Part shown: positions 3,201 through 49,113 of the stretch, one piece after another
How the letters are laid out: every line of letters starts with the position of its first letter
Numbering within the stretch: the first letter of the stretch is position 1
Source: Euglena gracilis
Taxonomy: Eukaryota
DNA length: 64,000 nucleotides
NCBI GenBank assembly: GCA_039621445.1
Contig: CP154954.1
Location: 22,890,954-22,954,953 of the forward strand
Reading direction: 5' to 3'
Position numbers and translations under genes: made by a program
The notes under the pieces: model-generated
Seen by the model: only the letters and a program-made list of their open reading frames with translations
Told to the model about the DNA's origin: nothing
Databases searched by the model: none

Positions 3201-6200
3201 AAAATAAGACCCCCCCCCAAAATAAGACCCCCCCTGGGCCGATCAAGCAAAAATCCAAAAATAAGATCCCCCCATAAGTAAGACCCCCCTTGACGGTGCG
3301 AAGCGCCGGAGGCGGTGAAAATTTTCCCTGAAAAATTACCAAAAACCCCAATTTCATACACAAAAATGATCAAGTTTCAAAATTTCTCAGATTTTTGAAG
3401 TTCAAAAAACATGGTAAATGTTAATTTACGTCAATTTACACATGGCGTGAAGCGCCGAAGGAAAAATTTCAGTGCTCTTGGGAACCGGAAAAATGATGTT
3501 TTTTCGGGCCTGGGTCGGTCAAGAAAAAATCCAAAAATAAGACCCCCCCCAAAATAAGACCCCCCCCCCCCCTGAAGGCTTCCAGCAACGGACCCAAAAA
3601 TAAGACCCGGGTCTTATTTTTGTGGGGGGGTTAATGGGACTTGCACACAACGGACGGCCGAAAAGATTACCATTGCCAATTTTGCATAATTTATGATTTA
3701 TAAAATTCACCTGTAAACGGTTTTTGACCTGAAAATGAGCGTTTTTTTTTACCCGCCAGAGCCCCGTTTTGGCCCGAAACGTTTTTGGTCAAAAAAGCCA
3801 GAAGAAATTACATAATTTGCATAAATTTAATAAATTACTGTAAGTTACCATCTCGGGCAATTTTTTTCGATGTTTCTTGGATTTTTTGACATAAAAATTA
3901 CAAAAACCCAAAATCCATGGGTTTTGGGCCGAAAACGGGGTGGCGTGAAAATGAGTGTTTTTCGACCCCCTGCACCCCATTTTTTACCCGAAACCCATGG
4001 AGTTTGGGTCAAAACCGGGTCAAAAAAGTCGATAACAATCGGGAAAAAAAATTGCCCGAAACGATGTTTTTTTGGCCTCCCGGACCCAGAAAACCTGTCT
4101 TTGAACCAAAAATGAGCGTTTCTCGACCGCTCAAAAAACAGTTTTTCCGGGTCCGGGAGGCCAAAAAACATCGTTTCGGGCATCGTTTCGGACATTTTGT
4201 CAGACGGACACTTACGGAAATAATGTACGTTTTCTCAAGATAGTTTCGATGTTTGTGATGCTTGTGGTGAGCTTCACCGGTGAAGTTCACCATTGGTTTG
4301 TGTGAGGGAGGGAAGGTGTCCAGGAACCCCCAGTGAAGTTCCAAATGGTGGGCCTCACCACAGGGGGGGTCCAAAATGACCAATACTGCCTGATCTCCAA
4401 GACTGATGGCGGCCGGGAGTCCAAGATTCGACAGAAAAAGTCTTCCCAATCCGAAAGAAACCTTTCGGTCGCCTTCGGTGGCCGGCTTTTTGCAAATAAA
4501 AATTGGGGGTCGTTGCATTATGTGGGGGGCAGGCTTTTGCTTAAGGGTTCGCAGCACCCCCTCCGGGGGGGGGGGAGCTGGACTGCAGCTAGTCCAAATT
4601 TGGCTAGTGGGAATTCTAGACCCGGGGGGGGGGGGTCTGCTGGCAGGGCTAGTTAGTGACCGGCGCGAAGCGCTAAATTTTTGGACCCCCCAAAATGGCC
4701 CAAAATGTCCATTTTTGGCCATTTTTAAAAACGTCCACCTTAGCGCGCAGCGCCGGAGGAAATTTTTTTCCAGTCGGGGGGCTCCGATGTTGATGTTGTT
4801 GGCCCCTTCACGCTCTTAACATGCAAACTTGGCCCCCTAAGGTTGGCCCCTGGGGCTTACTTTCAATCATGGCCCGGGCCAAGCGCCCGGGGGGGGGGGG
4901 GGGGGGAGTGCATGCATGTATGTATGCACGCATGCATGCATGTGTGCATGCATGCATGCGTGTGTGCATGTAAAATTTAAAATTCATGCCATCATTGTTT
5001 GATATTGTTCTATTATTGTTTGTTTATGTGCAGCAAGAAAACAAGTCTCGAGCCAGACCCTGAGCTTGTAGAGCCTGAGAAGGAGGAGAGGAAGTTGCCC
5101 ATTGGCTTGCTGGCGGTGGTGACAGGTCCGGCCACACAGGTGTGTCTGGACCTCGAACCTAGGTGTTGGGCAGGCACCAACAGCCGACATAGCCGACGAG
5201 GGCCGACTGTTATTTTCAGGACCCCCGTAGATGGGGTTCCAACCGGGCTGACCAGGGCCGATGAGGGCCGATTATGTGTTTCGCTGATTATTTGACGTCG
5301 TCGGCTGCCTCCAAAAGCTGAAATTTGGAGTCTACCCAGAAGAGGCAATATTCGAGAAACATGGCAGTCCAACCCAGATCCTCTGGCACATTTCACTTTT
5401 TTTTCCACTTTTTGTCCGTTTTTGGCCAGTTTATGCCACTTTTTTTACATGGTCATTTTACCCACTTTTTGCCATTTTGGCCATTTTTGGTCATTTTTGG
5501 GGCCACTTTGGAGCATGTTTTGCTGTTTTTGAGATCGCAAGCAGTAAATCAGCAGCCAAAATGAGTGGCCAAAAGCAACCCCCCCCCAAATAACCTGGCA
5601 AATGACCTGGCGGGGTGCCAGGTCACTGGAACCATTTTGGCCCTGCCCCCCTGCCAGGTTACTTGGGCCCTTTTTTCAGCGGCGTAAAGGAATTTTACCT
5701 AAAAAGGGGGGTGCCAAATTATCGGAACCATCTTTTTTGCCCCTCCCCCCGCCAATCTATTCGGCCACTGCCAGGAGCAAGGCCCCACCGAGTTATTTGG
5801 GGGGGGGGGGTAGTCAAAAGCAGCAAATCGTGACCAAAAGTGGCCAACAGTTGCCAAAAGTTATCAAACAGAAAAAGTGTCCAATGCCAAAAGTGATTTA
5901 AAAGTGGCCAAACGTGGCCGAAAGTTGCCAGAAGCGGCAAAAATGGCGGGGAAACGGTGTGGAAAAGTGGGCAAAAGTGGACAAAAAGTGGGCAAACGTG
6001 CCAAATGCAGTCGACCATTTCGTCGTTTATGACCAAAGGTAATTAACTAAACCAACTAAAAGTTGCTTGCAAATGGCCGAATGTGGGCAAAGGTGGCCAA
6101 AATTTGCCACCTTTTTGCTGCTTCCGCTTTTTCCCACTTTTTGGCCACTTTTTACTGCTTTTGACTGCTTTTGGCCACTTTTGCCCATTTTTCGCCACGT

Positions 6201-48318: not shown

Positions 48319-49113
48319 CAAATGGAAGCAAGGTTCTACATACTCCAGGGGAACCAAGTGGAATCTCTGACGGATTCAGGGAGGGTGGGCATTTAATTTA
48401 GGAATTAGCTTAGGGTTGGAACTGTCGCGCCGAAAATGGGCATTTTTGGGGACAGAATTAGTCTGGAATTTATCACCTGTTGAATATGTTTTAGGGTGCC
48501 TTATTGCCTAAGATTTGCCCAATTGCGGCTAAATTTGGTTTTATTATGTCCGGAATGCAACCGAATTCCTTCCTAATTTCCAAAAGGGGGTCCTCCAGGA
48601 ATCCAGTCATAACCCCACTCTTATCCCAAACAATAACCCCGACTTGCTGGGGAAGTCGGACCCAGGTGCAACCATACGAACCCCCCCCCCCCCGAAATGT
48701 TCTGCATGGCCCCGGGGGGCCATGGAAAACCTTGCTGCCATAAAAACATATGTATGTTATTTATGTTACATTATAATATATATAAATATTGTATATGAAT
48801 AATATTTGTATATATTTCATTAGTGTATTATAAGATGTTATATGTGATATATTATAGTATTAAGTGTATTTAACTGGTTTTATTTCAACTAGAATCGCTT
48901 GAAGATATATCAAATTGTAACCAGGCTGTATTTTAGTCGGGTGCTCCAAGGCCCAAAAATCCGACTCTCCCCCGGGGGGGTAGGGCACTCGGTAGGGCCT
49001 TGCAGGCACTCCGGCGCCGAAGGCGCCGGAAGGCTCAAAACAGACCTATTTTCAAGGAAAATGGCCTATTTTCTGAGGAAAGTTCCTGGGCACAGGCCGA
49101 AATCCGACCCCCC

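Follow-up and report, generated by a model that had tools for sequence, protein, structure and literature searches.

Recurrent GNA-triloop mini-hairpins as a probable internal module of miniature transposons in a 64-kb region of the Euglena gracilis genome

When GC-rich hairpins recur in different transposon-like repeats, do they mark a signal that is read as structure, or are they copies of one inherited sequence? This question is raised by a 64-kb stretch of the Euglena gracilis genome (contig CP154954.1 of assembly GCA_039621445.1, positions 22,890,954 to 22,954,953 of the forward strand), referred to here as the window, with positions counted from its first letter. A preliminary description of the window had listed 15 hairpins in which a GC-rich stem closes a 3-nt GNA loop, or its complement TNC, in or next to repeats, and had proposed a structural element shared across unrelated families of transposons, which might serve as a host-factor site, as an ssDNA or repair signal, or in tolerance inside introns. 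We find instead that the hairpins appear to be an internal sequence module of very abundant elements that resemble MITEs (transposable elements of the miniature inverted-repeat kind). The account we prefer, to which we assign a probability of about 55%, is that they represent an inherited or exchanged MITE module shaped by palindrome dynamics at the DNA level and by module exchange.

Frequency and loop specificity of the hairpins

The sample for this analysis consists of the one window, about 49 kb of which is unique, and every statistic rests on that window. Statistics were confined to positions 1–49100, the non-duplicated part, because approximately 15 kb occurs twice: 31.1–46.2 kb is repeated in tandem as 49.1–64 kb, with 96–100% identity at an offset of about 17.8–18.0 kb. 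A 13-N assembly gap (49114–49126) is found exactly at the junction of the duplication (31100–46200/49127–64000), which could be a true segmental duplication or else an artefact of assembly or haplotype. The hairpins at 37771, 37644, and 42007 each have a second copy in the duplicated segment. All enrichment tests were post hoc, being run on the same window in which the pattern was first seen. The GC content of the window is approximately 51%, with strong local swings, and microsatellites and G/C homopolymer palindromes are plentiful.

All 15 listed hairpins were found where the preliminary description had placed them. The GC-rich pairing attributed to their stems is perfect in 7 (those at 3304, 11622, 13999, 23687, 49010, 29629, and 37771), and the remaining 8 have one or two non-Watson-Crick positions. 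Hairpins of the d(GCGNAGC) type are known for exceptional stability as single-stranded DNA, conferred by a sheared G.A pair. Nearest-neighbor folding of the intact copies as DNA, under a model that may or may not capture the special triloop geometry, gave predicted energies of −7 to −11.5 kcal/mol (z −2.3 to −5.1); decayed copies folded no better than shuffled sequences (z −0.4 to −0.5).

An excess of GNA loops over other triloops had also been anticipated, and this is slight when all triloops are considered but pronounced within the GC-rich c-GNA-g class. Among all triloop stems of at least 5 bp, GNA/TNC loops account for 29 of 184 (15.8%), compared to about 12% in 100 block-wise dinucleotide shuffles, and inverted repeats of every loop length from 0 to 8 are enriched approximately 1.5–2.5-fold over shuffles. 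Perfect hairpins with the c-GNA-g or c-TNC-g core number 13 in positions 1–49100, compared to 1.09 in shuffles, with none of 200 shuffles reaching 13. To count distinct GC-rich triloop hairpins, C(n)G(n) homopolymer junctions were dropped and identical sequences were collapsed, a filter that also removed the hairpin at 13999; GNA/TNC loops then made up 9 of 19, against 1.16 expected (maximum of 6 in 300 shuffles; binomial p=2.5e-4), and the 10 hairpins with other loops were at expectation (7.9). With a single count for the tandem array and likewise for the main module's two loop variants, 6 of 16 remained (p=0.011), and the strictest merging, in which all GGCC-type hairpins were also combined, left 4 of 14 (p=0.09). 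The c-GNA-g excess is therefore real but rests on few independent lineages. Across loop lengths 0–9, only lengths 3 and 5 stood above the shuffles, with the 5-nt excess due mostly to a single family of CCGCG type, which comprises a tandem array and a copy at 39617, and to shifted registers of the triloop array. Loop usage is uneven, GAA being far commoner than GCA and GGA, and GTA being limited to two places, a G(5)/C(5) homopolymer palindrome (21991–22004) and a GTGGG/CCCAC stem at 27267.

These counts bear on the possibility that the hairpins reflect chance, or GC composition combined with a general excess of palindromes. The small margin over all triloops is what such an origin would lead one to expect, as are the result of the strictest merging and the background frequency of the pentamer CGAAG itself (55 compared to 50.4). 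Against it stand the count of core hairpins, the number of distinct GNA/TNC sequences, and the 12 matches in the window, each with at most one mismatch, to the 12-mer core of the module described below, for which 0.09 would be expected. A chance origin is already disfavored, and we consider it highly improbable.

The G1 module, its host elements, and neighboring repeats

The largest family of hairpins, designated G1, consists of a GC stem closed by a C:G pair around a GAA (sometimes GCA) loop, followed by a purine stretch and an A-run/T-run. A relaxed scan added to the 12 matches of its core a thirteenth, more diverged copy at 27305–27319. The 15 listed examples had been treated as independent, but nine are copies of this one 12-mer with at most one mismatch, a tenth (3304–3314) overlaps the 3′ arm and flank of one copy, and those at 23687 and 49010 are one identical 19-mer. 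An A-run/T-run is found within 30 nt downstream on the GAA strand in 9 of 11 non-duplicate G1 copies, compared to a background of 5.9% (p=4e-10). This flank is unpaired and oriented, usually following a short purine stretch, and its conservation indicates that homology reaches beyond the stem. A broader module, in which any GC hairpin stands beside an A/T run, was considered and rejected, as 18 of 45 hairpin clusters have such a neighbor against a background of 40.5%; the association holds only for G1.

Stems had been said to differ while their pairing is kept. Most examples share their sequence, including the unpaired flank, and different self-complementary arms were seen in three pairs of homologous elements that are considered below. 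Within the 11 copies of G1 we detected no covariation, paired cells amounting to 79.5% compared to 79.8% after shuffling; two stem changes affected both sides, compared to 1.8 in shuffles and approximately 1.5 expected from the per-site rate. The preliminary description had set its structural signal against the case of a single ancestral sequence copied without covariation, and for the G1 examples the latter is largely what we observe. CpG transitions make up 18 of the 22 differences from the G1 consensus and affect both strands (11 C>T and 7 G>A). An early asymmetry of 6:0 among the 12 matches had suggested selection to preserve wobble pairs, a candidate that was dropped when the full count became 11:7. 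Over the whole window CpG is depleted (observed/expected 0.64) and TpG (1.28) and CpA (1.32) are in excess, which together with the CpG-transition differences among repeat copies is consistent with cytosine methylation of the repeats. Judged from the alignment, the G1 pattern appears to be the neutral decay of inserted transposon copies, and the predominance of GAA among the GNA loops is more in keeping with common descent than with a demand on structure alone. Because most examples are copies of one decaying sequence module, a structural signal is unproven.

Host elements of the hAT-like type were defined by a search for CAGG-N5-9-TTAAG ends combined with reading of the sequence. Four have terminal inverted repeats (TIRs) flanked by a target-site duplication (TSD) that is identical at 8 of 8 positions: E3 (11449–11842; 394 bp; TIR 16/16; TSD CCAAAGCC), E4 (23541–23891; 351 bp; TIR 12/16; TSD GTTGTGTG), E6 (28167–28693; 527 bp; TIR 16/16; TSD GTCCCAGC), and F1 (37509–37928; 420 bp; TIR 8/16 ungapped; TSD ATGCCAGT). 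The other two are E5 (41881–42130; 250 bp; TIR 16/16; TSD 7/8) and E7, a member of the E6 family (45547–45969; 423 bp; TIR 14/16; TSD 6/8), in whose central hairpin (45688–45714) a stem of 11 bp encloses a 5-nt loop that is not GNA. The hAT-like hosts have a common layout, in which a TIR is followed by G/C-homopolymer palindromes, an A/T-rich word region with the hairpin or hairpins, further homopolymer palindromes, and the second TIR, and they are therefore best viewed as one hAT-like group. To call the host families unrelated was too strong, given that these six share the CAGG-N5-9-TTAAG pattern of their TIRs, an 8-bp TSD, and one architecture.

Two further hosts are flanked by TA. E1 (3171–3631) has a TIR of 22/24 and TA/TA at 3169–3170 and 3632–3633, where TTAA fits equally; E8 (29523–29917), of the E1 family, has an ungapped TIR of 16/24 and a TSD of TA/TA. 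A TSD of 2 nt carries little information. The two elements are homologous to each other, have long TIRs that differ from the hAT-like ones, and both carry GAA-loop hairpins. The expectation that hosts of both the 8-bp-TSD and the TA-TSD type would be found is thus borne out, with six hAT-like and two TA-flanked elements, and the module is therefore common to two transposon types. The summed contig depth over repeat bins was up to 1.6 million, compared to about 115–185 in those bins of the same run that had low depth and were apparently single-copy; this depth is not a copy number, and it shows that the hosts are highly repetitive.

G1 copies are distributed over these hosts as follows. The intact copy at 11622–11640 (minus strand), central in E3, has an 8-bp stem, a GAA loop on the minus strand, the purine stretch, and the A-run/T-run, and folds at −10 kcal/mol (z=−2.7). 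The copy inside E5 (42007–42027, minus strand; duplicate at 59829–59840) has one CpG transition in its 3′ arm. F1 contains two modules on the plus strand, type b at 37644–37656, with one C>T in the 5′ arm and a fold of z=−0.5, and type c at 37771–37785, with a GCA loop and a perfect 6-bp stem (duplicate at 55610–55624). A truncated F1-family element starting at 4530 likewise contains, on the plus strand, a type b copy (4662–4674) and a type c copy with a GCA loop (4742–4754), and an F1-family fragment (14298–14430) contains a type c-like copy on the minus strand with a GAA loop and two stem changes (14417–14431); in the copies at 4530 and 14298 the hairpins are at homologous positions. The TA-TSD element E1 has two copies on the plus strand. 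One, at 3294–3314, has a single C>T and an overlapping 4-bp GGA hairpin formed from the 3′ arm and flank; the other, at 3444–3456, has a mutated closing pair. Two more plus-strand copies are the one at 27305–27319, absent from the preliminary description, with three CpG transitions and one affected pair compensated (A-T), and a degenerate copy at 19696–19707 with a broken closing pair.

The location of the hairpins within the elements also bears on their classification. The 3′-terminal hairpin of Helitrons precedes the 3′ end by a few nucleotides, in elements with neither TIRs nor a TSD. The hairpins of the window are found approximately 43–280 nt inside elements with both TIRs and TSDs, hence not where a Helitron end would have them; Helitron-type and terminator-type readings were ruled out on the basis of the TIRs and TSDs of the hosts.

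In three pairs of homologous elements (F1b/E4, E6/E7, and E1/E8) a hairpin occupies the same slot, with arms that are different yet self-complementary. The flanks of F1b and E4 align, and E4, with the hairpin at 23687, has one extra loop-side pair and completed outer pairs. E6 has an array of 7-bp GAA hairpins where E7 has its 11-bp stem with a 5-nt loop. The hairpins of E1 (at 3294) and E8 (at 29629) agree in their loop and outer pairs and differ at two inner pairs, each of which is exchanged in both arms. Independent neutral substitutions would, to judge by these alignments, rarely produce such differences between subfamilies; they would be expected if selection acts on the fold, if a cassette is replaced, or if the arms of a quasipalindrome undergo template switching.

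Several GNA hairpins have other stems. The G2 hairpin in E4 (23687–23705, plus strand) has an 8-bp stem and a GAA loop and folds at −11.5 kcal/mol (z=−5.1). The second copy of its 19-mer (49010–49030, plus strand) has 24 nt in common with 23684–23707; its host is undefined, the assembly gap at 49114–49126 following it. Inside E6, a GGCC-type hairpin minisatellite (28306–28384, plus strand) has a 20-nt unit repeated 3.9 times with 93% matches, every unit being a GNA-loop hairpin in which the loop letter varies (GGA, GAA, GAA, GCA). Near the right end of the same element is a GGA-loop hairpin with a 6-bp stem (28643–28657, plus strand), for which E7 has no counterpart. The hairpin of E8 (29629–29643, plus strand) has a GAA loop and a 6-bp stem. 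On the minus strand, a GAA-loop hairpin with an 8-bp stem (13999–14017) is in a 60-nt repeat unit, the neighboring copy of which (13866–13924) has just a 4-bp stem with a 5-nt loop, and a decayed GAA-loop hairpin (4466–4484) retains 6 of 8 pairs.

Hairpins of a different kind were also noted. Tandem arrays at 24123–24237 and 24383–24536 consist of units of approximately 33 nt, each with a GCCGCG/CGCGGC hairpin around a variable 5-nt loop and then an A-run/T-run, and a single similar unit is present at 39617–39633. Just outside E7, at 46161–46191, is a 13-bp perfect palindrome (T-run plus GC stem, 5-nt loop, GC stem plus A-run) with terminator-like symmetry.

Some repeats end in a G-run plus TCGGTAAG(T), as at 8934–8950, 9020–9036, and 23872–23885, and these ends resemble 5′ splice sites; elements with such ends may, on the basis of their sequence, be introner-like. 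The segment at 8951–9028, of 78 nt, contains a 7-bp GCA-loop hairpin with a closing T:A pair, and a 16-nt direct repeat flanks 8951–9019. DNA contigs, and likewise RNA reads, run off the segment at either end in large numbers, and the depth of its bin is very high, which marks it as a high-copy repeat found in transcripts as well. An exon was considered here, as RNA reads leave at both ends, and was rejected in favor of a repeat boundary, since the DNA contigs leave there too and the depth is so great. The two halves of the segment recur inverted at 17492–17528 and 17763–17825, 234 nt apart. Elsewhere in the window are long simple-sequence tracts, namely a (GTGG)n-type tract of 440 bp (20266–20703), a (TG)n tract of 380 bp (23162–23540), a tract of about 180 bp that is almost entirely T (35260–35440), and an ATAC/ATGC-type array (47890–48390). 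GC-rich stretches at 16900–17000 and 30200–30300 encode similar translated peptides with a common motif (...RPVDLL.PSLE...) and have no Pfam match; from this resemblance they may be exons of paralogous genes.

Origin of the module and competing accounts

In the account we prefer, G1 has been copied into many places by transposition, in hAT-like MITEs and in a TA-TSD family, and its inserted copies decay neutrally, mainly by CpG transitions that break the stem or leave it with wobble pairs. The slot is filled in related subfamilies by hairpins whose GC arms differ but are once more complementary to each other. Beyond these observations, all the hairpins would be variants of one ancestral module. 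Template switching within a strand, for which the very stable GNA mini-hairpin would serve as the nucleus, would together with slippage keep the arms symmetrical; these two processes would then also account for the 20-nt hairpin minisatellite in E6. Movement between MITE families would have occurred by way of chimeric or nested elements. Template switching is documented as a process able to create and maintain hairpins and to homogenize the arms of inverted repeats (PMC8794818, PMC8604942, PMC13100816). No function need be invoked to explain the data in this manner.

The module is also found outside the window. Two metagenome contigs that represent one locus (L001, 523–545, and L088, 172–194 on the minus strand) contain an exact copy of 23 nt with a T-run behind it. 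Short inverted repeats enclose this copy, the contigs have nothing else in common with the window, and G/C homopolymers occur at 0.4–0.6 per kb compared to 4.0. A metagenome scan in which two stem pairs were left free returned at least 119 stretches, at least 17 of them with complementary free pairs, nearly all resembling unrelated bacterial chance matches, so that covariation cannot be judged from them; among the matches listed, only L001/L088 resemble the module. A scan of viral contigs for the module gave no matches.

Several points weigh against our preferred account. The exact module in L001/L088 hints at constraint or horizontal spread. An excess of GNA loops alone among GC-rich mini-hairpins would be expected from selection for a stable fold in single-stranded DNA as well, and a role at the moment of transposition remains compatible with neutral decay, because TIRs decay alike. 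No spacer inversion or reconstructed template-switch event was found in the window, and that window is a single sample of 64 kb, about 49 kb of it unique. A bolder interpretation can also be framed: a portable GC cis-module with a GAA triloop would promote MITE amplification through a single-stranded intermediate and would have been acquired by at least two superfamilies here and by the L001/L088 repeat in an unrelated eukaryote-like genome, selection at the time of transposition keeping the fold as the stem drifts. We regard this as an improbable extension of the data. The ordinary interpretation is safer, in that a high-copy transposon module with neutrally decaying copies explains most of the signal.

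The most serious competitor is a functional cis-element. On this view the GNA mini-hairpin would form by extrusion, as single-stranded DNA, when an element is replicated or transposed. Binding of the transposase or a host factor to it would favor amplification of the MITEs that carry it, so that amplifying families would retain a hairpin with any stem. The specific c-GNA-g excess among GC-rich triloops would follow from such a role, as would the retention of a hairpin with different arms in all three homologous-element comparisons, the intact or nearly intact hairpins of elements with 8/8 TSDs, and the presence of the module in two TSD classes and in an unrelated metagenome contig. Mini-hairpins are moreover described, in passages of the review PMC13037366, as protein-recognized signals at the phage G4 origin, RSF1010 ssiA, and N4 promoters. 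A structural function is, however, difficult to reconcile with the absence of covariation in G1, the largest family, and with E7, which has a 5-nt non-GNA loop and is without the second hairpin of E6. The distance of the hairpin from the element ends varies (about 43–280 nt), the conserved G1 flank is unpaired, and the dominance of GAA points to descent. A strict need for GNA is also countered by the array of 5-nt-loop GC hairpins beside A/T runs at 24123–24536, and neither a protein partner nor an autonomous element was found in the window, Pfam giving no matches for the 8 open reading frames tested out of 144 of at least 130 aa. We consider a dedicated cis-element unlikely.

Two other accounts were considered. 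A mobile or exchangeable micro-palindrome cassette, comprising the hairpin and a short flank, might insert into or swap between A/T-rich spots of larger MITEs, in the manner of mitochondrial GC clusters. Just 24–26 nt are common to otherwise unalignable contexts (3444–3469 and 11612–11637; 23684–23707 and 49008–49031), G1-type and GGCC-type arms each occur in both hAT-like and TA-type hosts, and direct A/T-rich repeats adjoin two copies (11631 and 37650). These flanking repeats are, however, A/T runs of a kind common here (40% background for a run of at least 3 within 8 nt); the hairpin position is fixed and homologous in F1, E1/E8, and E6/E7; the window yielded neither a clean empty site nor a consistent TSD; and the joints of DNA contigs that skip hairpins are imprecise among the 15 of 580 joints viewed. 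A cassette is accordingly quite unlikely. Still less probable, in our estimation, is a role at the RNA level, in which the elements are introner-like and the GC hairpin with its T-run acts in the transcript through intron folding, termination, or small-RNA production. Some element ends do resemble 5′ splice sites (GGTAAG at 8943–8949, 9031–9037, and 23875–23880), and PMC7789003 documents, for other protists, introner elements whose repeats form hairpins. In the G1 alignment, though, stem changes to G-U wobbles (9) are about as frequent as changes to mismatches (7), as neutral CpG decay predicts, and an Rfam covariance-model search of the 64-kb window at the gathering score gave no matches. RNA reads are sparse, with a depth mostly below 3, and no RNA-supported splice joint was present among the joints listed (15 of 580); of the reads, 669 of 713 (X21) and 571 of 605 (X24) fit only partly and therefore derive from other copies.

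What lies inside a MITE tends to be regarded as filler. Should a defined mini-hairpin module prove to be retained by, or traded between, families of MITEs, a structural requirement in the amplification of non-autonomous transposons would be indicated; alternatively, the window would offer a clear natural example of palindromes shaped by template switching. In both cases this would be the first setting in a eukaryotic genome that we found for a hairpin of the d(GCGAAGC) type.

Comparison with known systems

The hairpins of the window have the same C:G-closed GNA loop on a GC stem as the d(GCGAAGC)/d(GCGNAGC) mini-hairpin of Hirao and colleagues, as presented in passages of the review PMC13037366, and the CCGAAGG and GCGGAGC variants given there also occur in the window. 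The natural sites named in that review are phage and plasmid origins and N4 promoters, and the word stem 'transpos' does not appear in it. Unlike these reviewed mini-hairpins, the ones described here are in eukaryote-type MITEs, and their extrusion in vivo is putative. In the open-access literature, the matches listed for the heptamer together with 'hairpin' included no papers on transposable elements, 'mini-hairpin' and 'transposable element' co-occurred in unrelated papers only, and no description of a conserved internal GAA-loop hairpin module in hAT MITEs was found.

With MITEs of the hAT superfamily the hosts share an 8-bp TSD, short TIRs, a length of 250–527 bp, the lack of recognizable coding capacity, and high repetition; a cognate transposase was not seen among the 8 of 144 reading frames searched with Pfam. 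The TA-flanked ends and long TIRs of E1 and E8 are like those of Tc1/mariner-type (Stowaway-like) MITEs, an assignment for which a 2-nt TSD is weakly informative, E1 also fitting TTAA. REP, BIME, and REPIN sequences and mitochondrial GC clusters are mobile GC-rich palindromes, likewise short hairpins that are found repeatedly, nested, and in arrays, but they are stand-alone and bacterial or organellar, whereas every defined copy here is inside a larger element with TIRs and a TSD.

Introner elements and MITE-derived introns (for example PMC7789003 and PMC11282704) are MITE-like with inverted and direct repeats and splice-site-like ends; the direct repeats of the published case are 3–5 nt, compared to 8 bp here, and hairpins formed by the terminal repeats of introners or MITEs are known (PMC7789003). 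A parallel to the arm changes is the template switching of quasipalindromes and inverted repeats (PMC8794818, PMC8604942, PMC13100816, PMC7202029), which predicts that changes are clustered and bring one arm into exact complementarity with its partner, and that the arms are extended. It also predicts apparent compensatory changes that arise without selection, and this matches what is observed in F1b/E4, E6/E7, and E1/E8.

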